DNA from: a virus | Taxonomy: Duplodnaviria; Caudoviricetes | Length of the DNA stretch: 45,281 nucleotides | Virus record (IMG/VR): IMGVR_UViG_3300017783_000051 | Coordinates: 1 to 45,281 of that record | Strand: one strand, 5' to 3' | Shown: positions 128 through 42,800 of the stretch, one piece after another | Layout: every line of letters starts with the position of its first letter | How positions within the stretch are numbered: the first letter of the stretch is position 1 | Notes under the pieces: model-generated | What the model was told of the DNA's origin: nothing | Database searches by the model: none | Seen by the model: only the letters and a program-made list of their open reading frames with translations | Translations under genes and position numbers: made by a program

Positions 128-135
128 TATTTATT
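128..135 (-). promoter_or_regulatory. Possible late promoter AATAAATA overlapping the stop codon of the small upstream ORF
   Basis: Plus-strand TATTTATT at 128-135; one mismatch to TATAAATA. Confidence 0.4.
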
Positions 136-322
136 CTGCAGGAGTTTCTTCTGGTTCTTCTACTTCTGGTTTCTCTTCTAAGAGATTTAGAGTTTCTAAA
201 CCTCCTTCTAATTTAATCTTATACTCTTTTGCTTTAACAAGATTTGCTTCAAGTTCTCCAATTTGTTTAACTGTAGAAGCAATCTGCTCTTCAAAATTTT
301 TCTTAAGTTGTGTGGGATCCAT
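131..322 (-). CDS. Small coiled-coil hypothetical protein (about 63 aa) preceding gp13
   Basis: The ORF track starts at a TTG at 331; the in-frame ATG at 322 (MDPTQLKKNFEEQI...) is the more likely start. Heptad-like amphipathic pattern, acidic tail, and a late promoter upstream. Confidence 0.75.
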   Translation of the reverse strand: MDPTQLKKNFEEQIASTVKQIGELEANLVKAKEYKIKLEGGLETLNLLEEKPEVEEPEETPAE

Positions 323-349
323 TTTAATCAATTGGTAATGATGTATCAG

Positions 350-357
350 TATTTATA
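350..357 (-). promoter_or_regulatory. T4-type late promoter TATAAATA
   Basis: Exact consensus (plus-strand TATTTATA) in the intergenic gap immediately after the stop codon of the 359-aa gene. Confidence 0.8.
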
Positions 358-1437
358 TTAGTATAGGATGATCAATCTACCATTACCACCGTCAGGACTT
401 CCTTGATATCCAGTACCTACACCAGAGACATAGTATTCATTACCTGTTTGTGGTGGGTTGTGTGTGTTAGGAGCACCCTGAGAACCCGTTGTAGTAATAC
501 CAGAAAGAACTTTATATGTGGAGTTTCCTCCAGCATATCCTGATCCACCGCCACCACCAGAGTTGTCATCACCACCAGATTGACCACCGTAGTAACCACC
601 GCCACCACCTGGGTCATCATTACTACTAGGACCATCACCACCTCTTAGTGCTGAACCATTAGCATAGTTGCCAGATGAGTTAGATCCAGCATAACCAGAA
701 ACTTGGCGACCGCCCCAACCACCTTTGTTGTTACCAGATGGTTCAGAACCACCACGTCCACCTTCTGTACCACCACCAGCACCACCATATGCTCGGTCAG
801 TTGTTTGGTCGTTAGCACCACCACCGCCACCAGCGATAATTAGTGCTCTATCTATTGATCCACTACCAGGATTAGATCCAGAGAATACTGTAGCTCCACC
901 TTGGAAGATACCACTAAGTCCACCACCAGAACCAGAAACGTGACCACCACCACTATCAGCAGATCCTCTTCCACCACCACCGTACATAGCAGGCATTGGT
1001 GAACTTCCAGTTCCTCTTACACCACCCTGTCCTACAACAATAGTGAATGTGTCTCCATTCAAACTGTTGGCATCAAATCTTTCAATGGTTCCACTAGAAA
1101 AACCACCAGAACCAGCAGCAGCAGTTCCACCTTCGTCAGATCCACCACCTGCACCCCACATAACAACTTGGAGTTGGTTCACAGTTCCACCAGAACTAGG
1201 TACGTTAAATGTCTGATCAGATCCAGTATATGCAAACACAGCAACGTTGCTGAAATCTTGTGGGTTTGCATTCTGAATAGATACCCACTCAGTTCCAGTC
1301 CAAAGTTGCAACACTGATTCTTCAGTGTTAAAGATCAACGCTCCTTGTGTTGCTGACGCTGGTCTAGATGAGTTAGTAAAACTTGGGAAAACAACTTCGC
1401 TGCTAGCAACTAGCTTTCCTACATTTAATTGTGACAT
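358..1437 (-). CDS. Glycine-rich putative tail-fibre tip/adhesin protein (ALK/LTK-type glycine-rich domain-like)
   Basis: N-terminal module PSFTNSSRP...GALIFNTEE...WTGTEW is followed by WGAGGG / TIVVGQGG / LIIAGGGGG / GGGGGYYGG / GGGGGSGY motifs and a terminal GNGRLII. These are typical of polyglycine-II bundle domains. Confidence 0.75.
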   Translation of the reverse strand: MSQLNVGKLVASSEVVFPSFTNSSRPASATQGALIFNTEESVLQLWTGTEWVSIQNANPQDFSNVAVFAYTGSDQTFNVPSSGGTVNQLQVVMWGAGGGSDEGGTAAAGSGGFSSGTIERFDANSLNGDTFTIVVGQGGVRGTGSSPMPAMYGGGGRGSADSGGGHVSGSGGGLSGIFQGGATVFSGSNPGSGSIDRALIIAGGGGGANDQTTDRAYGGAGGGTEGGRGGSEPSGNNKGGWGGRQVSGYAGSNSSGNYANGSALRGGDGPSSNDDPGGGGGYYGGQSGGDDNSGGGGGSGYAGGNSTYKVLSGITTTGSQGAPNTHNPPQTGNEYYVSGVGTGYQGSPDGGNGRLIILY

Positions 1438-1467
1438 GTTCTCAAAAAACTTCTAGTGCTTTCATTA

Positions 1468-1475
1468 TATTTATA
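1468..1475 (-). promoter_or_regulatory. T4-type late promoter TATAAATA for the 359-aa glycine-rich gene
   Basis: Exact consensus overlapping the TAA of the upstream oxygenase, about 30 nt before the ATG at 1437. Confidence 0.75.
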
Positions 1476-2076
1476 CCCCTTTTAAGTATCCACAATCTTG
1501 TAGTTCTTTAAATGCCTCTCCTTCATAAACAACATAATGCATAAAGAGTTGATGGTGATAATCCTTAGGTCCTCCTGGCATCGGTTCTCTCCAATGCTTT
1601 ACCGCATTACCCAGATAGATTACAGCATCCCCATTTTCTAATTCAATTTCTGAGACACCTCCATTTTTTCTTTCAACAAAAAACTTCCATGGTTTTGAGA
1701 GAGTAGTTTTTAATTGTAAAGTAACACTAATCTCACATGGTTCCCAATCTTTATGTGGTGTTAATTCAGTACCAGCATAGTATATTCTATCAAAATAATA
1801 TGTTGGGTGTAATTGATGAGGTGGTAAAATAAATTTTTGAATTTGATTCCTCATTTGTAAATGAAAATTCTTTAAAGGAGGGAAGCATGTTCGGGAATAC
1901 GAACCAGGAACTTGCAACTCAGGAAACTCTCCATCAAAAGTTCCATCATACAACCACTCAAGATGTTTATCTTCATACATATCTTTTTCGGGAAGAATAC
2001 TGAGATATTCAGGGTCTCCTATAAAATTACGGATAACGCAATATCCGTTTTGCCAGAAAAAATCATTTAGTTTCAT
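1471..2076 (-). CDS. Putative 2OG-Fe(II) oxygenase (HKD..CEISVTL subfamily)
   Basis: RIYYAGTELTPHKDWEPCEISVTL ... GDAVIYLG...KHWRE gives an HxD...H triad in a double-stranded beta-helix pattern. ATGA overlap with the upstream gene. Confidence 0.8.
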   Translation of the reverse strand: MKLNDFFWQNGYCVIRNFIGDPEYLSILPEKDMYEDKHLEWLYDGTFDGEFPELQVPGSYSRTCFPPLKNFHLQMRNQIQKFILPPHQLHPTYYFDRIYYAGTELTPHKDWEPCEISVTLQLKTTLSKPWKFFVERKNGGVSEIELENGDAVIYLGNAVKHWREPMPGGPKDYHHQLFMHYVVYEGEAFKELQDCGYLKGV

Positions 2077-2684
2077 AGTTCTACTGCTAGTAATAGAGGA
2101 TCAGATTGAGAATTATTGTTACACCAAAAATAATCCATACCTTGTTCTGTAATTAAATCAAATGCTATAGTATATCTTTGTTCATCTATCAATTTATCTA
2201 CAGAATGAGGAAGACATGATGGGAATAATGTCATCCTTCCTTTTGAATTTTCTGTTGTAATCCATCCTAGATATGGGATGTCATAATCTGTAGTAGTATT
2301 ATTTTTCGTAAGACAGATGTTTCCACTAATATATGCGTTTTCGTGAATTGCATGATAGTGTCTTTTTAAAATCATTCCTGATTTTTGTGGGTATACCCAA
2401 CCCCTTATCCAAATTTTTTCTTTACTGCAATTAATTTTATTGCAAAAATTTTCATAAGAAGCTTTGATAATGTCTTTGAGATTCAAGATACATTTATCTT
2501 CCCATTGAAAAATGTTGTAATGTTCCCATTTATGATGTTGATATAAATTTTCATTCTTTTTAACAACCTCTAAAAGATCATCAACTAATTGAAGATTAAT
2601 AATATCAAACCACATGTCAACAGAAAATTTTGGAGCAAAGTAGTTGTTTGCAGGATTGGATCTCCATGTGCGCCATTCACCCAT
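2073..2684 (-). CDS. Putative 2OG-Fe(II) oxygenase, TIGR02466-like (HxH...H)
   Basis: Motifs W...KRHYH...YISGNICL...GRMTLFPSCLPHSV...RYTIAFD. Confidence 0.8.
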   Translation of the reverse strand: MGEWRTWRSNPANNYFAPKFSVDMWFDIINLQLVDDLLEVVKKNENLYQHHKWEHYNIFQWEDKCILNLKDIIKASYENFCNKINCSKEKIWIRGWVYPQKSGMILKRHYHAIHENAYISGNICLTKNNTTTDYDIPYLGWITTENSKGRMTLFPSCLPHSVDKLIDEQRYTIAFDLITEQGMDYFWCNNNSQSDPLLLAVEL

Positions 2685-3378
2685 TTATCCTGCCTCCATA
2701 TTCTACATTTAATGCAAGAACATCTTTCCTAAGATCTTCTGAGTATGGACACTCTACTTGACATATTCTGCAGATGGTATCCAAATTTTTAAATGCTTCA
2801 GGAACATCTACAAAATTTGCACACTTTTCCCAATCAACTAGATCAAAGTCCATCTTACAACCTACTGGACATTTGCTCTCACATGGAGCATCACATCCTT
2901 CACAGTTCTCATACCTTGGTTGTCCTTCTACAACAACAGCATCTTCAAACTCTGCATTGGTAAAGATGAGATCAATTTTGTAATTCATCCCGAACTTTTT
3001 ATGAAATGCTAGAGATGGTTTTGCCAGAGTTGCAGCTCCAGATCTAAGAGCAAACTGTTTTCGGTTGAGATTGTATCCATCATATCCAAAATTATATTCA
3101 TATCTTAAATTTAAGTATGTAATAATCTGTGGTAAGAAATTGTTTTTATAGTAGTAATCATATGCAACATCACTAAAGACATTCCATACGATTACAGATT
3201 TACATTTATCTGACAGATAATATTCTTTGTCTAGAGAATTTGGTTTTCCTTTGTTATAGTTATCTTGTGCTCTTTGACGTATCAAATCATCAGGAGGTGT
3301 AGTAACAGTAACATCAAACATAATTGGAGTATCTCTAGTCACCCAGTTGATAGCTTCAACAATTTGACTGGTGTTCAC
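2677..3378 (-). CDS. Epoxyqueuosine reductase QueG / reductive dehalogenase-like double [4Fe-4S] protein
   Basis: KSVIV, AYDYY and YDGYNLNRKQFALRSG..LAKPSL...FG...LIFTNAE are followed by CEGCDAPCESKCP and C...CRICQVECP, the same motif order as the QueG core. A GTG start at 3378 (GTGA overlap with the upstream stop) is preferred over the TTG at 3390. Confidence 0.7.
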   Translation of the reverse strand: MNTSQIVEAINWVTRDTPIMFDVTVTTPPDDLIRQRAQDNYNKGKPNSLDKEYYLSDKCKSVIVWNVFSDVAYDYYYKNNFLPQIITYLNLRYEYNFGYDGYNLNRKQFALRSGAATLAKPSLAFHKKFGMNYKIDLIFTNAEFEDAVVVEGQPRYENCEGCDAPCESKCPVGCKMDFDLVDWEKCANFVDVPEAFKNLDTICRICQVECPYSEDLRKDVLALNVEYGGRING

Positions 3379-4022
3379 AATTGTACCCAATGATCTTTCA
3401 TGTTGTCAAAAACATCTTCGTCATATACAGTTTGTGTAATGATATCAAATGCAATTGTTACACGAACATCATCACCTTCATAAGTATCAGTGTAATGCTC
3501 TAACCAATTAGGGAAAACATATACTTTTCCTTTCTTATTTTTAGTGTCAAATGTTTTTCTAGTATATGGATTTACATAGTAAGTATTAGTGTCGTAATCA
3601 TCTAGACAAATATGTCCACCAAGATACGTATACTTACTATTCCAATGCTGGTGTTGTTTGATTGCTTGTCCTTTTCTCAACACGTTCGCCCAACACTGCA
3701 CATAAATTTTATCTTCCCATAGATTAGGATCTAACGTGGTGATAAGATTGTCATGGGAGTTTCTGATAATGTCTTTGATATGATCTGCTTCATCCCAATC
3801 AAGTAAATTATAACTGTTTGATCTAGATGTCATACTAGATTCACCTAGACCAGTATTCCAGTCACTTTTATAATCATTAGCATTAATAATTTCTTCTTCT
3901 TTTGAGAGGATGGTATCTCTAATGTCTTCCACCTCTACCTCTCCCTCATACACATAAAACTTATATGTTGGAGCGAAAATAGTTTTCGGTTCTTCGTTTT
4001 CAAATTGAATTACTTGTCCCAT
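3375..4022 (-). CDS. Putative 2OG-Fe(II) oxygenase, TIGR02466-like (HxH...H)
   Basis: Motifs CWANVLRKGQAIKQHQH...YLGGHICL...VFPNWLEHYT...RVTIAFD; apparent paralog of 2073-2684. Confidence 0.82.
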   Translation of the reverse strand: MGQVIQFENEEPKTIFAPTYKFYVYEGEVEVEDIRDTILSKEEEIINANDYKSDWNTGLGESSMTSRSNSYNLLDWDEADHIKDIIRNSHDNLITTLDPNLWEDKIYVQCWANVLRKGQAIKQHQHWNSKYTYLGGHICLDDYDTNTYYVNPYTRKTFDTKNKKGKVYVFPNWLEHYTDTYEGDDVRVTIAFDIITQTVYDEDVFDNMKDHWVQL

Positions 4023-4024
4023 AA

Positions 4025-4633
4025 TTACATATACAAAAATTGACTCATAGAATACCTTCCCTGTCCAGGAAGATCTTTCATTACGACACTTGTCACTTCA
4101 TGATATAAAATTGAAGGAAAGATTACCGTAGAATTATTTAGACATGGGATTTTTATCGCTTTTTCAATAATTAAATCACCACCAGTAAAAGATTTTGGTT
4201 CTTTATAAAACCATGTGATAGCTGTGATAACACAGTCATCTGTGTGTGGTTTGTAATGATCTCCATCTACAAAATAATGAATCTTAGTTTCATCTCTATT
4301 TGATCTCCACACATACCTAAAAAATGGATGCTTAGACATTAAAGTATCCATTAGTTGGTTATCAAATAATTTTCTATTGATGTTTAATATATCTGATTGT
4401 TTAACATCATCATAAACAGCATTCAGATGAAGACCTTTTCCTACCTTGAGTGCTACGCCATCTTCATATGCTGTGCCTGGTCCTCCAGGTTCTTCTGCAT
4501 CTTTATATCTGTCAATACCATTCAGAAATTCAAGCTCATCCATTATCTTTTTTAACTCTTCTTGTGAGTAAAAGTTCTCAATGTGAACTACAGGTAGATC
4601 TGCTATTTTAGTAAAATTCAAATTTAACATCAC
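4025..4633 (-). CDS. 2OG-Fe(II) oxygenase, prolyl-4-hydroxylase-like
   Basis: Motifs IENFYS.EE, YKPHTD, FTGGDL, IFPSILYHEV and GRYS (HxD...H...RxS). Start is GTG 4633 or ATG 4630. Confidence 0.88.
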   Translation of the reverse strand: MMLNLNFTKIADLPVVHIENFYSQEELKKIMDELEFLNGIDRYKDAEEPGGPGTAYEDGVALKVGKGLHLNAVYDDVKQSDILNINRKLFDNQLMDTLMSKHPFFRYVWRSNRDETKIHYFVDGDHYKPHTDDCVITAITWFYKEPKSFTGGDLIIEKAIKIPCLNNSTVIFPSILYHEVTSVVMKDLPGQGRYSMSQFLYM

Positions 4634-4970
4634 TAATTTCTTTTATAGTTGCCCACCTGAATACAATAGCATCAGAGAAATACATTTGTTTTGGAATTAA
4701 ATCAAAACCCACTTCTTTATTTTCAACATCTAAAGCATACAGATGTAAATCTCCAGTGTCTAAACAAACTACAGATGTAAATTTTCCATCAGAAGATACT
4801 TTGTCATCTGATATTTTTTTGACGAATTCAATTTCTCCAACAACACCAAACTCTTCTAGCATTACAGATCTAATACCTTTTTCTAAGAGAAGAGTATCTG
4901 GAACATTTGCTATATCAATATACTCAGGAAACTTATAACTGTTCCTGATATTCAACAGTTGGTTTGCCAT
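4608..4970 (-). CDS. Hypothetical protein (possibly a degenerate oxygenase-fold protein)
   Basis: 120-aa ORF coupled to the upstream gene by a TAATG overlap at 4970; no metal-binding motif seen. Confidence 0.65.
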   Translation of the reverse strand: MANQLLNIRNSYKFPEYIDIANVPDTLLLEKGIRSVMLEEFGVVGEIEFVKKISDDKVSSDGKFTSVVCLDTGDLHLYALDVENKEVGFDLIPKQMYFSDAIVFRWATIKEISDVKFEFY

Positions 4971-5449
4971 TAAAAATAATTAAAGTTAATGTTAGCTCTA
5001 AATTGCTGATCAGTACATGAAGTGCTGTGATGCATTTGAGTTGCATCAAATTTCAACAAACGATTTTCAATAGATTCTACTTTCTCATCACCAATAACTG
5101 TATATCCATCATTGGTATTCAAGTATAAAATTGCTGCTTTATGTTCAAATTCAAAATCAGTATGATCATGATAATGATATAGAGTATCAGTTCTAGGATA
5201 TAAATTTGCTTTTACTCTTACAACTGCATCTGCTCCAAACATAAACAAAATAGGAACAATGCATTGATCCCATTTATTACTTCTTACTTGATGTTGAGCA
5301 TGTAATAAGTGAGTAAAGTATGGATATTTTTCCAATCCTTGACCAGAAGCATCCTTCTGTAAAAACCAAGGTATATTTTGTGAGGTGAGAATATTATCTC
5401 TGATGAGATTGAATAACTCAGGTGCTAAGTAATTGTCAATAATTTCCAT
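4970..5449 (-). CDS. Putative 2OG-Fe(II) oxygenase (short cyanophage subfamily)
   Basis: Motifs IIDNYL, RVKANL, HTD, AILYLNTNDGYT, ENRLLKFD...HHS and RANINFNYF. Confidence 0.82.
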   Translation of the reverse strand: MEIIDNYLAPELFNLIRDNILTSQNIPWFLQKDASGQGLEKYPYFTHLLHAQHQVRSNKWDQCIVPILFMFGADAVVRVKANLYPRTDTLYHYHDHTDFEFEHKAAILYLNTNDGYTVIGDEKVESIENRLLKFDATQMHHSTSCTDQQFRANINFNYF

Positions 5450-5450
5450 T

Positions 5451-5972
5451 TTAAATATCTAAAAAATCTTTGTTTAATGGCATAGTGGTATCAAGTCCAT
5501 ACCACATTGAAAGTGTGTATCTATCTCGTTTAATTACGTTTGATACACCATGACGGAATTCCATTCCATCAAAGTACACAGTTCTACCAGAAAGAGGTTG
5601 AACATCTACTCCTTCAATAACAGTATGTCCACCAATATAAGTGTCGTTTAAATATGTGATTGAAGCTCCAGTAGTAGTTTTTCTAGTTCTATCTTTGTGA
5701 AAGGTTTTACTAGCACCACATGGATACTTAACTATCTCCACATTTTGCAATATAGAAAATTTATCATCAGTCACCTTACTCTTTACTTCTTTTGCAAGAT
5801 CTAAAATATCATAGTAGGTTTCTGAAAGATTAGAAGAACCAATACCACCTTTGTCCATACTAAGAACTCTAGTTTCATCCCATGTATATGTTTTTAAAAT
5901 ATTGTCTTTAAAAAAATTAATTATTCTATCTACAAAATCATCACTAAGATGAATGTGTGAAATATGGATCAT
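5451..5972 (-). CDS. 2OG-Fe(II) oxygenase, prolyl-hydroxylase-like
   Basis: Motifs IVKY...FHKD, SITYLNDTYIGG, FRHGV and RYTLSMW. The ATG at 5972 (ATGA overlap) is preferred over the ORF-track start at 5996. Confidence 0.85.
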   Translation of the reverse strand: MIHISHIHLSDDFVDRIINFFKDNILKTYTWDETRVLSMDKGGIGSSNLSETYYDILDLAKEVKSKVTDDKFSILQNVEIVKYPCGASKTFHKDRTRKTTTGASITYLNDTYIGGHTVIEGVDVQPLSGRTVYFDGMEFRHGVSNVIKRDRYTLSMWYGLDTTMPLNKDFLDI

Positions 5973-6592
5973 CGAAATGGTGCTCCAATACTCCAACTGA
6001 CAAGAGAATATCTAGTTCCCTCTGTAACTTCACGAACTCTATGATAGACAAATGCAGGAAACACTACCAATGTTCCTTTGGTTGATAATTCTTCTGCAAC
6101 TTTTGTCTCCTTCCTATTGAAGTGAAACTCTAGTTCTCCACCCTTGAATTCACTAGGATCATTTAGTAACAAAGTAGTAGAAAGTTTTCTGTACTTTCCT
6201 CTCATGTTTTCATTAGTATCATCCTCTGGATAAACATAATGATGTTGATCTGGATGCCAATCATAAAACTGACCAACATCATATTTGGTAAACTGTAACA
6301 TCTCTGTCCAGTCCCAATCAAAATTCCATCCTGCCCGTGAGTTGGCAGAATCAATATATTTTTTAAGGATGTTATAAATCCAAGGTTCGTTTATCCAGGA
6401 GATGTGAGAATTTCTAGTTGCAAATAAATTTTCTTTATCTTTTTCTGAATAATCTTTGATACCTTCAGTTTGATTTCTGTTTACTTCTCCAAATTCAAAA
6501 TTCTCTTTCATACCCATCTTAATGATGCGGTCACATTGTTCTGGAGTAAAGGCATTTTGAAAATACCAATAGTTATAATTAAGATTCATCAA
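5969..6592 (-). CDS. 2OG-Fe(II) oxygenase, PKHD/prolyl-4-hydroxylase-like
   Basis: Motifs QFTKY..GQFYDWHPD, RKLS..LLLNDPSEFKGGELEF and VFPAFVYHRVREVTEGTRYSLVSW. Confidence 0.92.
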   Translation of the reverse strand: MMNLNYNYWYFQNAFTPEQCDRIIKMGMKENFEFGEVNRNQTEGIKDYSEKDKENLFATRNSHISWINEPWIYNILKKYIDSANSRAGWNFDWDWTEMLQFTKYDVGQFYDWHPDQHHYVYPEDDTNENMRGKYRKLSTTLLLNDPSEFKGGELEFHFNRKETKVAEELSTKGTLVVFPAFVYHRVREVTEGTRYSLVSWSIGAPFR

Positions 6593-7206
6593 GCTCCATT
6601 ATATTGAGTGTAGTCAAAGTTGGGTATCTTATAAGTATACCACCCCGTTGTAATATATTTAGTTTCAGTTTCAGAAGGCACACCACGGTGAACATGAGTC
6701 CAGTCAACAGGCCACATAATTGTTAGTCCTTTACGTGGTTGTATTTTTATCTGTTGATGAAACCATTCAGTTTCTCCTCCATCATGCACTGTGTTTAAGT
6801 AAGTCATAAACACCATATGTCTAGTTGAAACCATGTTAGATATAGTTGATCTTTCTGTGTGCCACCCAAAGAAACCTTCGCTTGGATTGTATTTTTGAAT
6901 ATTGAAATTAGTATTCAATCCCCAAGTATCTTGATTGGTGGAACACCATGGATATTTTTTGATGTACTCTTTACATACATCACTCAGTGCTGTGAGATAG
7001 TTTTGTATTCTTTCATCTTGGTTTCTTGGAATTACAGTAACGTCTGTTGATACTTTAAAATCTTTATTAATTCCAGAACCAACAGATCCAGGTTTTTGAT
7101 CTGAAGATTCTTCAAAGAAAGAAATTAATCCATCACAAATTTCTTCATCAATGTACCATCCAGAAATAAAATTTGGTGATTGTTGTGGAACAATAAATTC
7201 AATCAT
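6589..7206 (-). CDS. 2OG-Fe(II) oxygenase (HxE...H type)
   Basis: Motifs NIQKY...GWHTE, MTYLNTV.DGGETE, WPVDWTHVHRG and KYITTGW. Confidence 0.9.
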   Translation of the reverse strand: MIEFIVPQQSPNFISGWYIDEEICDGLISFFEESSDQKPGSVGSGINKDFKVSTDVTVIPRNQDERIQNYLTALSDVCKEYIKKYPWCSTNQDTWGLNTNFNIQKYNPSEGFFGWHTERSTISNMVSTRHMVFMTYLNTVHDGGETEWFHQQIKIQPRKGLTIMWPVDWTHVHRGVPSETETKYITTGWYTYKIPNFDYTQYNGA

Positions 7207-7769
7207 AGTGACATATTAAAGGAGATAGCAATTTTTTCTTCGCATACTTGTTTCTCTGTACCATGCATCATATCACTGGTAAACAATAAAAGCGAGCCTG
7301 GTATACATGAGTATTCACAATACTGATAGTTATTATCATTCCACTCTTCTGGATCAGGAAGCATGGTAGGAGAATTGAAAAATTTTATCTTCTCATCAGT
7401 AGAACATTTGATATAATAAACTCCAGATATCATAGACCCATTGTGATTATGTGGGAAAAGATAATCACCAGGATAACTAATGTTTGCCCAACAATTTTGA
7501 ATATGTAATGTATTAGTTTTTTTATATCCTAAAGCATTTAAATATTTTTTTGTGTGTATGATAAAATGCTCTGTTAACACACTATCTAAATCTGCAACTT
7601 GTAAAATATTCTTATGTGATTTGTGTGTAGAATCTACATTTTTTTGACCGTCACGAAAAGTTTCAACATTAGAAAAGGCATCCTTGATTAGTTGCTCATA
7701 GATGCCTAATTTGTTATTTAAAATGTTTGGTTGAAAGTAAATCGCTTTTGGAAACCATGATGTAATCAT
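7203..7769 (-). CDS. Putative 2OG-Fe(II) oxygenase, TIGR02466 family (HxH...H)
   Basis: Motifs WANISYPGDYLFPHNH..SMISGVYY, PGSLLLF.S.M.HG and KIAISFN. The ATG at 7769 (MITSWFP) is preferred over the GTG at 7796. Confidence 0.85.
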   Translation of the reverse strand: MITSWFPKAIYFQPNILNNKLGIYEQLIKDAFSNVETFRDGQKNVDSTHKSHKNILQVADLDSVLTEHFIIHTKKYLNALGYKKTNTLHIQNCWANISYPGDYLFPHNHNGSMISGVYYIKCSTDEKIKFFNSPTMLPDPEEWNDNNYQYCEYSCIPGSLLLFTSDMMHGTEKQVCEEKIAISFNMSL

Positions 7770-7774
7770 ATTGT

Positions 7775-8365
7775 TTAGTAATACTGCTTCACCCACATAT
7801 GTTGTTGATTATCATATGTGTAATTTACACGTTGTTCTTCAAATGCTAAAACTTTAATGTAAGTTTTTTTCTGTTCATCCCAAACCCAACCTTTTGGATT
7901 CATATTTGCATTTACAGTATACTCTGAAGTATCAGCGTATGGAAGAGGAGCTCCCTTGTTATCAGTAAGTTGTCTGGACTGATATGGACACTCCCAATGA
8001 CATGCAGCTTCGTCTAAGATAACATGAGTTGCATCATGTCTTGGTGGAATAAAAGCATCTCTTTCGTAATCATATTTACCACCAACAGCAGCATAGTTTT
8101 TTCTCAAACAACTTTTGCTACCAAAAAGAGGTTCAATATAATCTCCATTTACATCGGGTGGACGTTGAACTCTATGTTGTCCTTTTACAGCATTGTATGA
8201 TGTTTGCTTCCAATCCCATTGAGGTGCTCCACCAAATAACTCAGAAAGAAAATCAATTCCTTTCTGTTCTACTTCGTTGCCTTCATTGTTTTTAAGAACT
8301 TCATCGTCAATTACAACAACATCAACAACAGTTCCTGTTCTGTCTATTTTTGCGAAATGTGCCAT
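7775..8365 (-). CDS. Conserved marine-phage hypothetical protein (MAHFAK type), possible fibre assembly chaperone
   Basis: MAHFAKID...WKQTSYN...RKNYAAVG..YD..RDAFIPP...W.CP...W.WDE, a motif set I recognise from small phage genes following glycine-rich fibre genes. It starts 5 nt after the 350-aa gene. Confidence 0.7.
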   Translation of the reverse strand: MAHFAKIDRTGTVVDVVVIDDEVLKNNEGNEVEQKGIDFLSELFGGAPQWDWKQTSYNAVKGQHRVQRPPDVNGDYIEPLFGSKSCLRKNYAAVGGKYDYERDAFIPPRHDATHVILDEAACHWECPYQSRQLTDNKGAPLPYADTSEYTVNANMNPKGWVWDEQKKTYIKVLAFEEQRVNYTYDNQQHMWVKQYY

Positions 8366-8370
8366 TGTTT

Positions 8371-9423
8371 TTACTGGAATTTATACTTTACAATTACGAT
8401 ACCGCCGCCACCATTACCGCCTTTGGGTTCTGGATAGTTGCGAGGATCTTGGTCAGCAGCACCACCGCCACCTCCACCAAGACCACCTGTTCCTGGGTTT
8501 CCGTCAGCAGTAGGAGATAGAGCACCTACTCCACCACCACCAGATCCACCATTAGGGTTATGAGGACCACCAGGGTAGTTAGCGCCACCGCCTCCACCAC
8601 CATAAGTTTGTGCGGAACCAGAGATAGCAGATGTATATCCGTTACCACCTCTTGCGGGACCTGAATTGGGTCTGGTGTATCCAGCTTGACCTGCTTCACT
8701 AGCACCGCCACCACCACCAGAAGTACCATTCTGAGATGTAGCACCAGTTCCACCAGGGAAACCTTGACCTGATGTACCAGGACCACCAGGTCCCTCTCCA
8801 TCACCGTCAGTGCCGTTTCCGCCACCAGAACCACCTGATTGTCCAGGTTTATCCTGTTGACCGCCTCCACCGCCTCCAATAGCGGTTTGTGTTCCTAGTG
8901 AACTATTTCCACCAGGTGATCCTGCAGAGTTACCAGTTCCTCCAGTTCCTCCACCACCAACAGCGATAGAATAGGAACCAGCTGATACAGCGTAGTTATA
9001 TCCATCAGTTCTTAAGACACCACCAGCACCTCCGCCTCCCCCAGAACCAAAGTTGTTAAAGTCACCCGAACCAAATCCACCACCTCCACCGCCACCTGCG
9101 ACGATAAGATAGTCAACAGTGTTGCCAAATGGTTGAGTAGAATCACCCACTTCAGTTATAACAAAAGCAGATGCACTATTGAAAGTGTGAATACGAAAAT
9201 CTCCATCATTCTGAATTGCTCCTCCAGATGCTGTGATAAATCCACCACCTGCACCAACAGCAGATTTCCATTCTGCTCCATCATATACTTCAACACCACC
9301 CTCTTCAGAGTTGTAAATCATCATGCCAGGTGTGGCAGATAATCCATTTCTTTGAGAAGTAGTGTATGATGGTAATTGTAGGGTCCCAGTTATATTAAGG
9401 GTTCCAGCATTTAATGTAGACAT
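8371..9423 (-). CDS. Glycine-rich putative tail-fibre tip/adhesin protein
   Basis: N-terminal module LPSYTTSQR...PGMMIYNSEE..VEVYDGAEW is followed by ASGG...IHTF, YLIVAGGGGGG, GGGGGAGG, GQGFPGG, YGGGGGG and a terminal GGNGGGGIVIVKY (polyglycine-II-type domain). Confidence 0.78.
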   Translation of the reverse strand: MSTLNAGTLNITGTLQLPSYTTSQRNGLSATPGMMIYNSEEGGVEVYDGAEWKSAVGAGGGFITASGGAIQNDGDFRIHTFNSASAFVITEVGDSTQPFGNTVDYLIVAGGGGGGGFGSGDFNNFGSGGGGGAGGVLRTDGYNYAVSAGSYSIAVGGGGTGGTGNSAGSPGGNSSLGTQTAIGGGGGGQQDKPGQSGGSGGGNGTDGDGEGPGGPGTSGQGFPGGTGATSQNGTSGGGGGASEAGQAGYTRPNSGPARGGNGYTSAISGSAQTYGGGGGGANYPGGPHNPNGGSGGGGVGALSPTADGNPGTGGLGGGGGGAADQDPRNYPEPKGGNGGGGIVIVKYKFQ

Positions 9424-9429
9424 AGTTTT

Positions 9430-9627
9430 TTATTGTCTCTGTGTTTCTTGCCAAACAAGGTCGCCGTCTGAATTAGGGGCATATAGGTAAATTCTTTTTG
9501 CTGTTGGTTCCCAACAAATTGCTCCAGCTTCTGCTCTCGGCATTGAACCTTGAGAATGAAGCGGGAGATCTACGGAAACACTTGGATTAGCAGTGTTTAC
9601 TGTTAACTTAGCAGGAATAAACGCCAT
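9430..9627 (-). CDS. Small hypothetical virion protein consisting of one fibre connector-like module
   Basis: LP......P.AEAGAICWEPTAKRIYLY...W resembles the N-terminal module of the two glycine-rich proteins; first gene after a late promoter. Confidence 0.65.
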   Translation of the reverse strand: MAFIPAKLTVNTANPSVSVDLPLHSQGSMPRAEAGAICWEPTAKRIYLYAPNSDGDLVWQETQRQ

Positions 9628-9648
9628 AGTTGATATATCCTATATGGT

Positions 9649-9656
9649 TATTTATA
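9649..9656 (-). promoter_or_regulatory. T4-type late promoter TATAAATA heading the adhesin/oxygenase island
   Basis: Exact consensus overlapping the TAA of the 3034-aa gene, about 20 nt before the ATG at 9627. Confidence 0.78.
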
Positions 9657-33806: not shown

Positions 33807-33830
33807 TATTTATATTTATACTCTATTTAG
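33807..33830 (-). promoter_or_regulatory. Triple tandem late promoter boxes upstream of gp8
   Basis: TATAAATA at 33807-33814 and 33813-33820 (overlapping), plus CTAAATA at 33824-33830 overlapping the gp7 stop codon. Confidence 0.78.
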
Positions 33831-36800
33831 AAAATTGCAAACGGAACTAACTCATGACCGTTAGCAATTGAGTTTGTACCTCTAATCAAGGTACATCCAG
33901 TGAATGATGTAGATGTTTTGCCAGTATACTTAATAACAGTCCCACCAGTAGTAAACAAGTATCCATCATTAGGGAAATAATTTGTATCTTGAACAATGAT
34001 GTTTCCACCAATTGTCCCTGCGGAGGAACTAATAGCAACAGGATTCTGGATAGATGGCGGCATTATATTGAATTTATCACCAGCTAATGTATAACTGGAA
34101 TCCGCTCTCTCTGTAAAATCTTCAATGGTTAAAGATCCAAAGTAGATATTCATTTCTTGGATTGTCAATCCAGAAACATTAGATGCACCATCATCGAAGA
34201 TACCATCAAAATGACTGATAGTATGTCCTGCATTAGTTTTGGTGTAGTTTCCAATATATTCAACAACTGATCCAGAAAGCAAGTTAGTAACAAGAGTTTC
34301 TGTTGAATCTCTCCTTACAGCATAATAATTACCACCAACGTCAATAAGATCAACTTCAGAATCATGTCCTCCATTTGTATTACCAGCTCTAACAGGAAGA
34401 GGATCTGTTAAGAACACTTCTTCTTCGTAACCATCAACCACACCACCTGGAGGTGTAAACAGTAGAACTTCTAACTGATTTTTTTGTAATATAAATTCAG
34501 TTTGAACTGTTTGCAATTCATTCCGAACAATTGTTTGGTTATGAACTGTTTGAGTCGATATAACATCATTTAAAGGAGTTTCTATAGTAGTCGCAACTCT
34601 GGTTGTTACTTCAGATATAGAATCTACAAATAATTGTTGTTGTAGATCAACTTCAATATCCGTAGAAACAATTACCGTTTGCCTATCGATTACAATTTGG
34701 TAGTTAGATCTTTGCTCAGTTCTTCCAGTTACTGCACCACCACTTACAGTTACCAACTGAGATGCAGATTCAATCTGAGCAACACCAACAGGAGCAACAG
34801 ATACAAGTTCTGGAATCTGTCGTAAGAATGTTCCTGCGGTCCAATCCTTTTCAGTAGTTCCTCTTCTTGCTCTAATAATATTAATAAACCTATCAGAGAG
34901 CTTCCTGTTGTAAGATACAACCTCATCTCCAATCAATAGGAAACCAGTTCCATAGAATTTAGATGTATCAGGAATATAAGCGATATAATCACCAATATTA
35001 AAGTCAACATCAAGATATGCGGCATTCTCAAAGTAGTTGACATTAGACAACGCATCATTGGGAATTAGATTCTGAATGGTGGTTGTAATTGCTTTACTTA
35101 CTGTAGAGATAGAATTAACAGTAATAATATCTTGAATTTCTGCAGAAACAACAGATGCATTATGTTGAATAAGTAATGCATTCTCAATAGGTTGTGTTTC
35201 AATAAAGAAACCAAGTTCAACAACTCCAGGTTGATCAGAATCACCTGGCATATCAAATCCATCACCAACTATATTAGATGTTGGTAATCCAGTTTGTCCT
35301 GTTTGAATTACTGCTTCAATATCACGATCAACGTCTGCTGGACTTTGTAAATCTACAGAAGAGTAAGAGTTGACACCAGCTAATCTGTTGCCTAAAATAT
35401 CAATAGTAGAAATTGCTGTCATTCCAGAAGTTTCTACATATGGATTGATAGCAACATTGATAATTGATACACCAATTTCTCTTTCAGATAGAATATCAAA
35501 CTGCCTAGTTGTAATAACTTTAGGAGCAGTAGTATATCCATTACCACCATCAATCAGATCAACACTGATTACTTGACCCTTACTTACTAGAACATTTGCT
35601 CTAGCACCACCACCATTACCGTCTAAAGATTCAAACTTAAGAACAGGTGGTGTGTAATACTGATATGCAGTAGGTTGTGTAATAGGATCATAACTACGCT
35701 GGTTCCATGTTAATTCAGTAACAGATCCATTCTCAATAGTAGCAACTACGGATAGACCTTCACCTCTCGTGATTCCAGTGTATCTTTCAACTGATATTGT
35801 ACCAAAAATATCATCAGTAGTTTGCTCTCCATCTCTACCATCCTTACTGGTAGCTTCCTGAGGCAACTGTTTAATATTTCTAAATCCTTCTTCTCCGTCT
35901 ACACGAATTTTGTCACCACTGGACAAATATACAAAAGGTTGTTTGTATGTCTTTCTGAAGAAAGTTCCATACCAAAGAGCATTGTCATCTCTAAGAAGTT
36001 TTCTGTTATATTCGTCTTTCTTGAATACAATAGAAACATTGGAAATATCACTATCGGTAATTGTATAAGTTCTAGTATACTTACCTTTTACAGCAAATAC
36101 ATAGTCCAAACCGTCGATGGGAACAGGGTTTTGACACTTAAGATTGAATTGTGCAGTTCCACCTGATTGTCCTCCATTTGAAAGTTCACCAATTACATTA
36201 TATGTTCCATCAGATTTTATTTGCCACACATGAATAGCAGAACCAATAGCATCTCCCATCCAAGAATACTTAAAGTATTCATCGAGAATTGATTGGGAAC
36301 TATCAAATGTAAATTCTCCTTGTGCAAAATACGTGTCTGGAGAATAATCATAGATGTTTAATACTTGTCCAACATCTCTACCGTAAAGATATCTAATGTC
36401 AATCTTCATTTCCTTTTTGATAGGAACATTGAAAGTAATGTTAGGACCAGCTACTGAATAAGAATATCCTTTTCTCTGTAAAACTCCATCCAAGAATACG
36501 TATAGAGCATCTTCTGCTTCAATACTTTGTACCGTGTAATCTTCTACATCTAAAATTAAGAAAGGACCATTCCTAACATCATTGACTAGATTATAATCAA
36601 TAGTAAGTCGTTTGTAATTACCAACTCCAATACCAACTACTTTTTCAACTGCCGTTGGTTCGCCAATAGTTTTTGCACCAATGTCTTGATCCCAAATGGG
36701 AGCAACATCAAATTTAATTAAGTTTGGAATTACAGTTCTATCAATAAAATATGAATCCTCTAGAGGATAACCTTGGGTAAACTTGGGTCTTTGTAAAACA

Positions 36801-39800
36801 GCATTTAAAGTCAAGAATAGATTTTCATCATCTTCTGAATTTACAACAGAACCATCATCCCAATATAATTCAAATTCTTTAGTTTCACCATCAACATAAT
36901 CTGGAAGTGATCTTGTTACAGATTCTTCTCTAAGTACATCATCCAAATTAGTATATAAAGAATTAAGAGAAGCAATTACTGTGCTGCATTCCTGTTGTGG
37001 AAGCAGAGGATCCATCAAAATATTATAATTTGAATATGTTAGAGTAGGAGTCCAATTACCGCTTCTATTAGGATTTTGTTTTGTTGCCTCTACAAGTCCT
37101 TTTCCTTCAGTTAGAATAGTATTAACGATATCATGATATGTGTTTAGAGCACTCTCAACTTCTGCACAAACAGGACTTACTGAATCAACTAGAACATTTG
37201 GATCTGTAACAGCTCCTTGGTTCTTCATTGCAATAATCATTAGATCTTTTGCATATTCAAATGTAGCAACTGTTTCTGCTAATTGATAATCAATATAATA
37301 TAGTTTCTCTCCATATGGATATTGATTGTTTCTATAGTATAGTTGTGCAGCATTAACAACTTTTTCATTACCACCAAACTTGAGGTGATAAACATAAGCG
37401 TCTAAAATAAGACCAATATCTCTAGCACATTTTGTTTGTACATCGTATGTACCACTAGGAGCAAAACCACTAACAGTAACGATTGCATTTGGAACTAAGT
37501 CAAAATCACCTGGTTCAACTGTATTGATTTCAGTAACTCTACCTTCATCATCAAGTTCTGCTTTAGCAGTTGGTGTAAACTGATAAGGACCACCAACCCA
37601 GTTTAAATTAACTTGTACTGTCTCTGGATCATAACCATAACCACCATCAAGAACATTGAAGATGATTTCTTTTTTGACATCACAAGTTGCATCTAATTCT
37701 GTTGTTGGTGTCCAAGTAATACCGTCATCACCAGGAGTATTAATTCCACGAATGTAAGCAATTGGTGTTGAGAAATCAAAGTCGCCTTCTTCCGTAATCC
37801 AAATATTAGTAATCTTTCTACCGATAGTAATATCTAGAGTTGCCTGCACACCTCCAGCAAGTGTTGGAGGTCCAATATTAATTACACTATCACCTTCATC
37901 ATTAAAAAGTTCTTGCTCTATTTGTATATCATTGATTTCAATAAATCTCTGGAGAGGAATATATTCTCTATCATTTTCAATATCCCATAAATCAATAGAA
38001 GTAACTTCATTATTAACAATTACTGGAGTTCCTCTTAAACGACCTGCTAAGTCACCACTAAATGTAACTTCTGGTGGATTTGCAGGATCATAACCAGTAT
38101 TTGCACTCATGACCATCTGTCGGATCCATCCAACACTATCCAATTGAGCAGACATCTCATAACTAATTCCAGTTTGATTAGCTGGATTTACTACAGTATT
38201 TTCTGCTGGGAAACAATATAAAGTTGGTGCATGATTGAATACATAACCATCACTTTCTTTAATTTTTACAGCACCAATATCCAAACTATATTTTGTGTAT
38301 AAGTTTGCAACTGCGTTTTGTCTAGTGCTATTAGGATCTTCCCAGTTTAGAGTAGGATAATTGTTTTTTGCCCATGCTATGGAGTTACCAATAATATCTG
38401 CTCTATTAGCAGTAATTAAACTAGCACCATCATAGAAAGTACCATTATTAAGTCCACTCCACGAGAATGTTGCTTGATCAGTTCCACCAAAAGAACTAGC
38501 TGCTGTTACTGTAGAACCAGGAGGAATATCATAAGTATCGCCGCTAATAACTCGACCAGTATTCGTTGGTAGTGTTGTACCACCAGCTACAGCAGTTCCA
38601 GATAGATCTGTGATTCCAGCTGGCACACCACCACCGCCTGCAGAGTTTGCTAATGCACTACTACTTAAAGTAATTTCAGTTGCACTATCAATCGATACAA
38701 TTTTTGTTCCTGCTGGGTAAGATCTACCAGAACTAACAAACATGCCAATAGCAACATCCTCAGTGGATGTCAAGGTCATTTTATTTGTTCCTTGAATGTA
38801 GGTTACAGCAACATCAATATAATCCCAGTTACGAACAGCAAGTTTTGCTAATCTAGTTGAATATGAGAAGATAGAACTAGATGGAGTTTTATTGTTTTGG
38901 ATGTAAAGATAATCATCATCTTGATTGAAGATAGATGCATAATCAATAGTTTTGATGTTTCCACCAAATCTAATATCATGTTGATATGCATCTAAGATAG
39001 CTCTGATATTTCTTTCATAATCATCTTGCTTAGTTGCCCAATCTAAAGATGGATAAGTTTCTTTACCATAACCAATAGTTTCATTGATAATAAATTCGAC
39101 ATTCCTTTCAATTTGATTTGCGGAATCAATCCATGTGCCACTACGCTGGAAAATGTTTCTTAATTTTCTTAAGTGCTTAGTATTGTATTGATCATCCTTA
39201 AACTGGAATATCTTACCATAGAAAGTAACACCTTTATAATCAGAACCAAATTTAGATCCATCTCCTAATGGAGGATTGGCAAATGTAATCTGATCGCCAC
39301 TAATAGTATAAGCAACTTCAGGTTCTTGAATAACACCATCAAGAGTTACAATAACTCCTTTAGCTGATGCAGGTGTGAATGGTGTACCTAAATCACTAAG
39401 AATTTGGAATGTTTTAGTTCCTTGTAATTTACCATCAGTATCATAGTAACCATCAAATGCACTGCCAAGAGAAAATTCTAAAGCACGAACTTCATTAAAT
39501 AAGAACTCACTACGTGCTGCAGTACCAACTCCTCTACGAATTCTAGTATTCTCTACTTTTTGAATAGTTTGAGTAAGTATCTGCTTAGTGCTCTCAACTG
39601 TAATTCTATTTTTATCTGGATCCCAAAGTTGTACAACACTGAAATGTGATGCCTTTGGCATTTCTGCTGGCATTTCTGAGCTAGCAGTTCCTTCTACATC
39701 AACCTGACCAAATAACTTAAATCCTGCAGGGTGTGTAGTAGATTTAATTAAATCACGCCACTGTTCAATAGATGTTTTTGATTTAACAACATATGAATAA

Positions 39801-42800
39801 TCTTGGTAGAAGAAGCTATCAGTAATTTTTTGGTTTGATACACCAAGTTTACCTTTGTCTGAACTATAGAATCCCAAGTTATCATAGAAACTATTAATAT
39901 CTTCAGCAAAGGTAGTTACAAATACAGATTTAACTTTACCATATACATTAGATAGAATTGATTCAACATTAATACCCTTACGTATGATACCTGTAGTATT
40001 TTTAATTTTTAATAAATTTGAACCAAATCTCCACTCTGCTACTGTTCCTCGGAACACTACAACATTATTAATTTTTTGAACTACTTGTTCACCACTTTTA
40101 AAATTGCCATTAAAGTTTGTTAAAGCAAGAATATAATTTGAACTGAATGTGGATGCTACAGTTTTGTCTAAATGGAATGCTCCACCATTTGTAGTAATGT
40201 TTACACTACGAGGAACACCAATACTAGTGCTTTCAACATATGCATCAACTTCACCTTCAACAATAATAATCTCTGGTGCATAAGTATAACCTCTTCCTGG
40301 TTTCTTTACAGTAATAAATGAGATTTCTCCATTTCTTACGAGAACTTCAAAAATAGCATCAGATCCATCAGCATCAACAACAAATACTTTAGGATTTACA
40401 TAATTCTGTCCGTTGTTTGTAACTTCTACCCCTGTTATAACCTGAGAATCTACATCAAATAAAACTTTAGCAGTTGCTCTATATGGGGTGGTAGGATCAG
40501 CACCAACAATAACAGGAACTTTTTTGTAGTTCAGTCCTAAGTTGACAATACCTATCGAGTTAATCTTTCCGATAGCGAACTGACCAGTAGTAGTATAAGA
40601 AATGGTTCCAGAACCGTCCCAGAGAGGATCGCTAGGAACATCATAAACAAAACGAGTGGGCGTAACATAGTTTACTTCTTTAACACCTTGCAATGGATCA
40701 GTAACAATTCTGAAATATGCTCCATTAGAAGTAACTACATTTTTTCTATCAAAGTAATAGAAGTTAGTAAAATCAGTTCCCACTTTTGTCTGATAGTTGT
40801 TACCAGCAAGTCGTGAACCAAATCCAAACTTGACATCAGTAAATGCTCCTGGGTTACCAGGGAGAATTGTAGATTCTAATTTTTCATCAGTAATTAAGTT
40901 ATAGTTGTTACTTGGACTAATATCAAAATATGTTCCAGTTAAACTAGGATGTGATGTATCAAAGCTATACTTGTAGAACTCTTGTAAATCAATATTTGGA
41001 TTTGCAACAAAGTTAACGTTGTCTGTTGAGAATTCAAATTTGTATTCAATTTCTGTAGCAGAGTTAATCGATACTAATCTTTGAGGTGTGCTAGAATCAA
41101 AGAAACTAGAACTTAATACTAATTTGGTTGCATTGGATATTAATGTACCATAATCATAAACAATTTTAATTTTTTGTGTGTCGGGATCGTATGATTGGAT
41201 GTACCCAGAATTAGAACCATCAAAAATTTGATAGTTAGCAGCAAAATTATATCTTGGTTTGTAAATTGTTACTTCTTGCTCATCAAAATGATCTACATCT
41301 TCAGTACCCTCTTCACCTCTGGATACAATAAATTCATTTCCAACAATATTTTCAATTTTAATAACTTCTTCACCAATTTTGATTAGATCTCCAGTTGCAA
41401 ATCCTAAAGAACTATCTACAGTAATTTTAGTACCACCAGAAGGAATACCAACATGTCCAACATAGATGGTAAATCTTACTGTAGATACAGAAGCAGCAGA
41501 TCTTACTAGAGATTCATCATCAACACCAAGATAATCTCCTCTTTGATATCCAATACCAGTATTTTGTAATTGAATATCAGAAACTATACCAGCTGCAGAT
41601 ACAGTGAATGTAGCAGTAGCTTCAGTACCTGATCCACTAGTAAGGGGAACATTAGTATACGTTCCAGGAGTATAATCAGCTCCACCATTTAGAACTTCAA
41701 AACGACCAATACCAGTTGAGTCAATTTTAGTTTTACTCTTAGGTGGTACTAATGTTGCTTCTTGATATAATCTCTTTCTCAGATAATAATTTTTAGTTTT
41801 AATTGCATCATCAGGATTAATATCAATTGTTACTTTATCACCGATACCTAATCCATGTGGTGTTGATGTCTCAATCAATGCAACACTTTGATTAACTTCA
41901 AATGGATTCAACCCATCACTAAGTGAAGTGATACGAACTAATTGAGTTCCAGAAGTATTAAACAAGTTACTTGACTGGAGGAAGTAGTCATCATTAACAA
42001 TCCATGTTCCACTAAGGACCTTAATCTCTACTACATTTTGACTACTAGTTCCTTCTAGAACTTCACCAGTAGCAACAGGAGCATTGATACCATCAGTTAA
42101 ACTTAATACTGCTCCTTTTGTGTAAGAACTTCTCTGATCGAGAAGCATAGTGAAAGTTTTAATAGTTGCAGAGAAAGTTCCAGTTTCATCAAATGTACCA
42201 TTAACGTTTCTTAGTACAATTGTATTATCATTCTTTACTGTACCGACAATAGAACCAGAAGCACCAGATGATGGTTGATTCAGTGTGTCATTAGCAAATA
42301 GATATGCATTTTGAATAGTTGTTAATCTTACAACTTTATCTTCCTTGGATTCTAGATAGTTTACAGGTTGTCCAGTAACAGAAGATACAATTGCTTCTAC
42401 TTCAGATCCTTCTGTGCCTTTGTTATCAAATCTAATTTTAGAATTGATGGAGAAGTTAGGTGAAGTATCTTCTACATTAATTGCTTCTACATTTCCTTGT
42501 CTTACCTCTGCAACCTGTGCAATAACACCTTCACCATTTCTCTGCATTCCAGGTTGGTAGAATCTCTTCGAGTTCTTAGGAACTTCATTCTGACTGATAT
42601 TGGAATTGTAGTTGCTATCAACTGGTAGGGAGTAGAAATTTTCTCCTAGAATGTATGGGTATTGCGGTACTTGATTGCTATCAATAGTAAGGAAATAAGC
42701 ATAAGTTCCTTTCGGAAAGTCGGGGGTAACTGTAAATCTTCCATTGTTTTCGTCTAACGTGCCACTCTTATGAGTGTAGGTATAGTCATTAACAAATGTT

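Follow-up and report, generated by a model that had tools for sequence, protein, structure and literature searches.

What would lead a marine phage to carry nine different 2-oxoglutarate (2OG)-Fe(II) oxygenases in one closely packed run of genes, just behind a gene for a glycine-rich (GR) protein? The question is raised by positions 1 to 45,281 of IMG/VR virus record IMGVR_UViG_3300017783_000051 (Duplodnaviria; Caudoviricetes), a stretch of 45,281 bases that is here called the window. The minus strand carries its T4-like structural genes: those of the baseplate wedge, very long genes of fibre type and then the oxygenase block, whose downstream end reaches the start of a gene matching the neck gene g13 of a close relative, Synechococcus phage S-RSM4, which is the closest cultured match to the contig. 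On the same strand the block itself consists, in order, of a late promoter word, a gene for a protein of 65 amino acids (aa), the glycine-rich gene GR1, the gene of the MAHFAK protein, eleven genes (7796-1471) and a second glycine-rich gene, GR2. The eleven genes encode nine oxygenases (ox1 to ox9), one iron-sulfur (Fe-S) protein and one 120-aa protein of no assigned family. When the longest open reading frames (ORFs) are taken, they are joined throughout by overlaps or by gaps of 1-2 nucleotides (nt), and the gap between the MAHFAK gene and ox1 is 5 nt if the ATG at 7769 is taken as the start. A preliminary description of this DNA had set out the same layout, all of which is present, and had read it as a system for tailoring virion adhesins. 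The reading that we favour, and to which we give slightly less than an even chance, is that some of the nine oxygenases would hydroxylate the predicted fibre tip, GR1, or fibres near it at the stage of late assembly. GR1 is the most likely candidate substrate of the enzymes, and it is unlikely that all nine act on it.

GR1 is predicted to be a fibre tip from its fold. Its sequence has no match among PDB sequences. Its AlphaFold model (predicted local distance difference test score, pLDDT, 88 from a 29-row alignment) matches the Pam3 tail fibre gp24 (7ypx_A; Foldseek E 8.6e-6; Z 16.0, 2.4 A, 187 residues) and the Bxb1 tail tip (Z 15.2), with a weaker match to ALK/LTK. The N-terminal module of Mtd is matched by residues 15-57 (Z 5.2), and the model divides into this Mtd-like module followed by TNF-like and glycine-rich lattice domains of the Pam3 gp24 type. 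The loops of GR1 are conserved, with ten prolines kept in 6-7 of 7 orthologues, and the conservation of the protein equals or exceeds that of most cassette enzymes. The 65-aa protein, which has no Pfam or PHROG match, is similar on visual inspection to the first 60 aa of GR1 and is possibly a stand-alone trimerisation or attachment module.

For the MAHFAK protein, searches of Pfam, NCBIfam and PDB sequences and a Foldseek search of the PDB gave no match, and its BFVD matches are unnamed proteins. The best VIA match of its model (pLDDT 87 from a 78-row alignment) among 48,161 chains is 7ypx_a, which is weak (Z 4.8, 1.9 A, 58 residues), and Mu Tfa (5yvq_B) lies lower in the same list (Z 2.1). 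GR1 and MAHFAK, searched separately, match two chains of one PDB complex, 7ypx, described as the Pam3 fibre gp24 with its chaperone gp25 (PMC9608196). In that complex gp25 is reported to bind gp24 3:3 via its first 55 residues and to cover the distal loops, and it is thought to be released afterwards (PMC9608196; PMC9942802). Because the 7ypx_a match, weak by itself, is joined by a GR gene directly upstream of MAHFAK in 56 of the 60 sequence clusters with enough context, we read GR1 and MAHFAK as fibre and chaperone. MAHFAK is thus likely to be a fibre-assembly chaperone with a Tfa/gp25-like N-terminal domain, and more likely so than a scaffold. The family, estimated at about 13,000 IMG/VR stretches, marks glycine-rich fibre genes, and tandem GR-MAHFAK repeats in several loci (L073, L086 and L137) look like a bank of alternative tips. 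A scan of unlabelled genes up to 1.5 kilobases (kb) downstream of MAHFAK at distant loci (105 in all) gave mostly genes with no assigned function, lysis genes or structural genes; it also gave five glycosyltransferases, one FkbM methyltransferase and one further oxygenase, with no common tailoring theme.

Late expression is suggested by the promoter word TATAAATA, whose copy heading the block shares bases with the stop codon of the preceding 3034-aa gene. The exact word occurs five times on the coding strand of the 45 kb, each time just before a gene, and never on the opposite strand; an ATAAATA is found no more than 60 nt ahead of the 65-aa gene in all 37 loci having that gene (some contigs counted twice). 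The late-type promoter word that had been noted at the head of the block is present; a second and a third copy, listed below, had been overlooked. The second stands directly before GR2, which can thus be transcribed separately. A TATAAAT at 8385 was considered as a promoter of the MAHFAK gene and rejected: it codes for part of GR1 (K-Y-K-F), and many orthologues lack it. A sigma-70 scan was uninformative (41 sites vs 38.1 expected). GR1, MAHFAK and the nine oxygenases are likely carried on one late transcript.

All nine oxygenases have intact metal triads, with HxD in ox3, ox4, ox5, ox6 and ox9, HxE in ox2, HxH in ox1, ox7 and ox8 and a distal His in each, and the earlier counts (five, one and three) hold. 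The triad is the canonical HxD/E...H in 6/9, and the HxH..H of the other three is as in the PF13759 family. An Arg or Lys about 10 positions past the distal His (2OG binding) can be seen by eye in eight and is not evident in ox9. Clear mutual likeness is confined to ox7 and ox8 (35%). Pfam assigns six of the nine to 2OG-Fe(II) oxygenases, ox2, ox3 and ox6 belonging to PF13640; PHROGs match all nine, seven through oxygenase-labelled families and ox5 and ox9 only through the labels 'DNA endonuclease V' and 'ferrochelatase', respectively. The ox5 family profile also marks Syn9 gp51 and gp53, and the ox9 profile marks Syn9 gp54, which is treated as a 2OG oxygenase by Iyer et al. (2010; PMC2938197). 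A search of ox5 against PDB sequences gave no match. More generally, phrog_274 and phrog_2297 ('DNA endonuclease V') and phrog_2954 and phrog_3531 ('ferrochelatase') sit on proteins with 2OG oxygenase motifs, and these mislabels enter counts of auxiliary metabolic genes (AMGs) in papers. The 120-aa protein has no Pfam, PHROG or NCBIfam match and only Atlas matches of 0.80 or less; its gene diverges fastest in the block (32-52% in distant copies) yet is never lost.

The Fe-S protein has a QueG-like fold. Its family profile matches QueG (5d6s) at E 2e-6 and PceA at E 0.79, the likeness to the QueG/reductive dehalogenase fold extending over the cobalamin-binding and two-cluster region, and the family alignment contains eight invariant Cys and two predicted 4Fe-4S clusters. 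The label of QueG-like reductase given to it earlier is apt in this sense, though the protein is not a QueG, because it scores 14.6 bits against TIGR00276, where the cut-off is 200, and has no match to DUF1730 (PF08331), which true QueG-like proteins have; it is also only 237 aa long, compared with 399-437 for QueG. D78-Y79 is invariant in the family and the next position variable, so the His of the QueG DYH motif is not conserved. In QueG that His has a catalytic role, and QueG acts on tRNA, which counts for the nucleic-acid alternative weighed below. Most of the 54 loci of the family are this cassette. The fusions seen among 24 of 150 distant matches were to Kelch and SCP2 only, with none to a fibre or an oxygenase. 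In one further locus (L204) the Fe-S gene has three oxygenases and a halogenase as neighbours and precedes a collar-domain gene. The family may be described as phage-borne QueG/RdhA-fold proteins, and lone members are inserted in T4-like replication modules (between gp47 and gp46, between gp43 and uvsX, after gp44 or after gp46), near single HxH oxygenases and bilin reductases.

The cassette recurs as a unit. S-RSM4 has a gene-for-gene match including GR2 (SRSM4_145-130, FM207411), with identities of 90% for GR1, 89% for the Fe-S protein, 91% for GR2 and 68% for MAHFAK; S-SM1 has the same order without ox1 and GR2 and with two ox9 copies (SSM1_048-061, GU071094). It stands before g13 in S-RSM4 and after the T4-GC346 fibre in S-SM1. 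Metagenomic copies keep the gene order down to about 35-65% protein identity, with single oxygenases gained or lost, and the combination of GR1, MAHFAK and 8-11 oxygenases recurs in three or more genomic settings. No locus with a visible upstream end lacks GR1. The constant core is the 65-aa gene, GR1, MAHFAK and the enzymes; some loci have a 339-aa GR gene ahead of GR1 instead of GR2.

Beyond the cassette, oxygenases gather near GR genes in two kinds of data. Around MAHFAK, with oxygenases called by nine profiles made for this analysis, an oxygenase lies within 1.5 kb in 25 of 58 clusters. At 51 loci outside the cassette clade, oxygenase density falls with distance from MAHFAK through 22.9, 9.4, 7.1, 5.6, 0 and 0 per 100 kb, from 22.9 within 1 kb to none in 213 kb beyond 4 kb. 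The second data set comprises 20 cultured Kyanoviridae, in which oxygenases were identified through phrog_61 and phrog_81 only, overlapping rows were manually excluded and at least one GR gene (in S-SM2) escaped the GR profiles. All 20 genomes carry 2OG-Fe(II) oxygenases and 13 have a GR profile match; in these 13, a GR gene lies within 10 kb of 39 of the 116 oxygenases (13.7 expected; 0/5000 rotations reach it). Without S-RSM4, S-SM1 and Bellamy, which were found via the cassette, the count is 22 of 90 (10.1 expected, p=0.007). In the 20 genomes, each of the four arrays of at least five oxygenases has a GR gene no more than 6 kb away; two of these arrays are this cassette. The Syn9 array, chosen from the literature and not by GR content, consists of ten dioxygenases that follow the GR genes gp36, gp38 and gp39 and a 164-aa partner, at the site of the S-SM1 cassette, and the arrays of S-SZBM1 and Bellamy have the same pattern of GR gene then array. 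A four-gene array in S-SM2 stands behind a fibre gene that is not of the GR type, and a GR gene lies 5 kb upstream. The counts in cultured Kyanoviridae thus indicate that large arrays adjoin GR genes and most single oxygenases do not. The linkage to glycine-rich genes that the preliminary description had offered as a check is supported across phages. Two of these GR regions have features of their own: Bellamy (L221, 36-56 kb) has eleven PF21722 matches in about 20 kb, several of them double-domain, with four oxygenase-region genes amid them, and Syn9 gp39 (L157, 19150-20328) has a repeated GR segment with an out-of-character middle and end, which suggests duplication with a frameshift or an assembly error.

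A lead toward the substrate, not a proof, comes from the composition of dereplicated GR domains upstream of MAHFAK. Proline makes up 4.1% of domains with at least two oxygenases within 4 kb (n=15) vs 2.0% of those with none (n=42; p=0.0006), six loci with one oxygenase having been set aside, and Pro-Gly is 2.6-fold commoner in the former. MAHFAK and the other ORFs of the same loci have no such rise, and GC content runs the other way, being lower at the oxygenase-rich loci. The trend persists in a single low-GC branch picked from the tree by eye (14 vs 8, p=0.010). Asparagine is not enriched in GR domains near oxygenases (p=0.57) and aspartate only marginally (p=0.07), so of the Pro/Asn/Asp-rich loops that had been named as targets, proline stands, asparagine does not and aspartate is borderline.

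These observations can be assembled into a tentative sequence of events. Gene order, coupling, the promoter word and the intact metal triads are read directly from the DNA. GR1 is predicted to adopt the Pam3 gp24 fold and to trimerise via its Mtd-like N-terminus. MAHFAK would bind the folding GR1 as Pam3 gp25 binds gp24 and would then be released. The PF13640-type enzymes ox2, ox3 and ox6, and perhaps others, would use O2, Fe(II) and 2-oxoglutarate to hydroxylate loop residues of GR1 or of neighbouring long fibres, most plausibly the conserved loop prolines of GR1, and the hydroxylation may alter receptor binding or stability. More speculatively, the QueG-like protein might reduce an oxidised product.

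Several results weigh against this picture. In Pam3 the chaperone covers the distal loops, which would limit the access of enzymes until its release. As 33 of the 58 MAHFAK clusters have no oxygenase within 1.5 kb, this type of fibre does not require oxygenases. GR2 lies behind the array in only 6 of 38 loci and is absent from 32, with the enzyme set kept (some contigs counted twice); for this reason and because it has its own promoter word, GR2 was rejected as a member of the unit, appears from sequence to be an optional passenger, and the earlier picture of two adhesins sandwiching the enzymes falls. The proline trend is one of 16 compositions tested and yields only 2 independent pairs on supported branches, too few to give any power to separate it from ancestry. 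Virion data also fail to show the GR proteins: for S-SM1, Table S8 lists T4-GC1428 and not 1429 (the 65-aa protein), 1430 (GR1) or 1431 (MAHFAK) (Sullivan, 2010), and Table 1 of the S-SZBM1 virion, a shallow list of 30 proteins, lacks the GR ORFs 48-50. The absence of S-SM1 GR1 is weak evidence, because the protein has only 4 usable tryptic peptides, and that of MAHFAK fits a released chaperone; the S-SZBM1 GR ORFs have 8-9 usable peptides each. Both absences are ambiguous, given few peptides, a shallow list and the possibility of modified peptides escaping closed searches. Syn9 genes had no match in the readable supplements of PMC11726456. The designation of GR1 as a virion adhesin thus draws on its predicted fold rather than on detection in virions.

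The distribution of the enzymes bears on the alternative that survives best, somewhat unlikely in our judgement: the oxygenases, together with the Fe-S protein, would be mobile accessory enzymes with host proteins or metabolites as targets, or would drain 2-oxoglutarate, and would have gathered at a recombination hot spot at the fibre tip. In the ten other cyanophages, 68 of 90 oxygenases lie more than 10 kb from GR genes, and within 5 kb there is no enrichment (6 of 90 vs 5.3 expected, p=0.43); clusters of three oxygenases lie 31-103 kb from any GR match. Single members of these families occur among genes of replication and bilin metabolism, the Fe-S gene itself occurs among replication genes near lone oxygenases (L183, L195-L196, L198 and L199-L203), and a PKHD-like oxygenase between uvsY and uvsW is widespread. 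Modulation of the 2OG/NtcA system has been proposed for cyanophage oxygenases in a paper that also cites DNA repair (Sullivan, 2010). A hot spot sits less well with the fixed order of 9-11 overlapping genes kept to about 35-65% identity in varied genomic settings, with the steep distance decay seen also in small unrelated phages, and with the proline trend, since a landing site predicts no rise of proline in the adjacent fibre. On balance, the preliminary tailoring reading keeps the GR1 fold, the QueG-like protein, the GR linkage and proline and loses the sandwich, the scaffold and asparagine, and its preference for fibre tailoring over other roles is weakened by enzymes of the same families far from fibre genes.

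That the eleven genes form a pathway for a small molecule, or for a glycan or peptide carried or bound by the fibre, in which the QueG-like protein would reduce an epoxide or halide, is distinctly improbable. Nine different oxygenases and a reductase-fold protein do look more like a multi-step pathway than the modification of a single protein, secondary-metabolite synthesis was proposed for the Syn9 array (Iyer et al., 2010; PMC2938197), and halogenases occupy a corresponding position in Syn9 and S-SZBM1 and adjoin the Fe-S gene in L204. Pfam, PHROG and NCBIfam, however, find no synthetase, precursor-peptide or transporter gene in the block, and the roster varies among Syn9, S-SM1 and this phage, with ox1 absent in S-SM1 and extra ox5 or ox9 genes elsewhere. 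Repair or modification of phage DNA or RNA, by AlkB/TET-like chemistry with a QueG-like step on tRNA or a DNA base, is very improbable despite the proposals of DNA repair for cyanophage oxygenases (PMC9146016; PMC3037559) and the dispersed Fe-S and oxygenase copies among replication genes (gp43, gp44, gp46/47 and uvsX), given that none of the nine matches an AlkB or TET/JBP family in Pfam or NCBIfam, that the promoter is late and the context that of fibre genes, and that the Fe-S protein lacks DUF1730 and is far shorter than QueG.

Hydroxylation of GR1 or its neighbours, if it occurs, matters because genes for 2OG-Fe(II) oxygenases rank with the most numerous accessory genes that marine phages carry, and they are classed under auxiliary metabolism, DNA repair or metabolite synthesis; groups of pelagiphage oxygenase and 'ferrochelatase' genes, for example, are filed as AMGs (Wittmers, 2022). 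Should the arrays linked to fibre genes act on the fibre itself, host range would hinge on chemistry that the fibre sequence does not reveal, many AMG counts would be mistaken, and the arrays would offer new protein-modifying enzymes. A bolder version, which we consider unlikely, is that marine phages run a dedicated fibre-tailoring line in which GR1 is multiply hydroxylated, a cobalamin/Fe-S step takes part and swaps of the enzyme set shift host range with the fibre sequence unchanged. The halogenases of Syn9 and the QueG-like protein here would then be swapped enzyme sets, the orphan 2OG oxygenases of cyanophages and pelagiphages would gain a substrate, and MAHFAK would mark a vast fibre-chaperone-enzyme module. 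The block is a good test case, since two cultured phages (S-RSM4 and S-SM1) carry it and the candidate substrate is a single 350-aa protein. Its features are collected in Table 1; elsewhere in the window (33827-45229), the 3800-aa baseplate wedge (gp7-like) protein has a YHYH domain (PF14240).

Table 1. Features of the oxygenase block and its downstream flank, in order along the minus strand (window positions).
Feature	Positions	Strand	Basis
Late promoter word TATAAATA, head of block	9649..9656	-	T4-type word; exact match
65-aa protein	9430..9627	-	No family match; heads block in most orthologous loci
GR1, 350 aa, 33% Gly, predicted fibre tip	8371..9423	-	PF21722 E 6e-20; model fold
MAHFAK protein, 196 aa, likely fibre-assembly chaperone	7775..8365	-	GR-adjacent; weak Tfa/gp25-like N-terminal domain
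ox1, HxH oxygenase, TIGR02466 family	7203..7796 (likely start ATG 7769)	-	PF13759; TIGR02466 above cut-off
ox2, HxE oxygenase	6589..7206	-	PF13640; phrog_61
ox3, HxD oxygenase, PKHD-like	5969..6592	-	PF13640; PRK05467 below cut-off
ox4, HxD oxygenase	5451..5996	-	phrog_2297 and phrog_61; motif
ox5, HxD oxygenase, family mislabelled 'DNA endonuclease V'	4970..5449	-	phrog_274; motif
120-aa protein, no family	4608..4970	-	Constant slot in block
ox6, HxD oxygenase, PKHD-like	4025..4633	-	PF13640
ox7, HxH oxygenase	3375..4022	-	PF13759
QueG-like protein, 237 aa, eight invariant Cys	2677..3390	-	Family profile vs QueG 5d6s E 2e-6
ox8, HxH oxygenase, 35% identical to ox7	2073..2684	-	PF13759
ox9, HxD oxygenase, family mislabelled 'ferrochelatase'	1471..2076	-	phrog_2954
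Second late promoter word TATAAATA, ahead of GR2	1468..1475	-	Exact match
GR2, 359 aa, 26% Gly, ALK/LTK-type glycine-rich domain	358..1437	-	PF12810 E 2e-15
Third late promoter word (357-350) and conserved 66-aa gene (331-131), before g13	131..357	-	Exact match; conserved gene

How does the block compare with systems already described? Arrays of this type have been in print since the Syn9 report of 2010; we found no description of the variant with a QueG-like protein and a Pam3-type fibre-chaperone head, and a search of titles and abstract openings, covering few subscription papers, found no proposal or test of fibre hydroxylation by phage oxygenase arrays. In the database records of S-RSM4 and S-SM1, most of the counterpart genes are annotated as hypothetical or carry wrong labels (denV, ferrochelatase, leprecan). 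In Syn9, gp41-gp54 form a tandem dioxygenase/tryptophan-halogenase array for which small-molecule synthesis was proposed, and the accessible text of that paper draws no link to a fibre (Iyer et al., 2010; PMC2938197). Both arrays comprise about ten tandem, mutually distant dioxygenases in a cyanomyovirus and share the ox1, ox2, ox5 and ox9 families. The Syn9 array, however, includes halogenase, JmjC and dUTPase-fold genes, none of which was found among the genes of this block by Pfam, PHROG or family profiles and in place of which it has the QueG-like Fe-S protein and the 120-aa gene. [quoted passage not shown]

Closest in concept are bacterial beta-hydroxylase/sulfotransferase operons, in which collagen-like or tail-collar proteins encoded alongside are the proposed targets of the beta-hydroxylases (Iyer et al., 2010; PMC2938197). 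As would be the case here, 2OG oxygenases are predicted to hydroxylate a co-encoded glycine-rich or fibre-like protein; that, too, is a prediction, and it concerns other oxygenase families, bacterial genomes and collagen triplets rather than a glycine lattice. The 2OG oxygenases encoded by chlorovirus PBCV-1 and mimivirus hydroxylate Pro or Lys in structural proteins of the same virus. Unlike the phage block described here, these are eukaryotic viruses with one or two such enzymes, and the residues modified lie in collagen-like or Pro-rich repeats.

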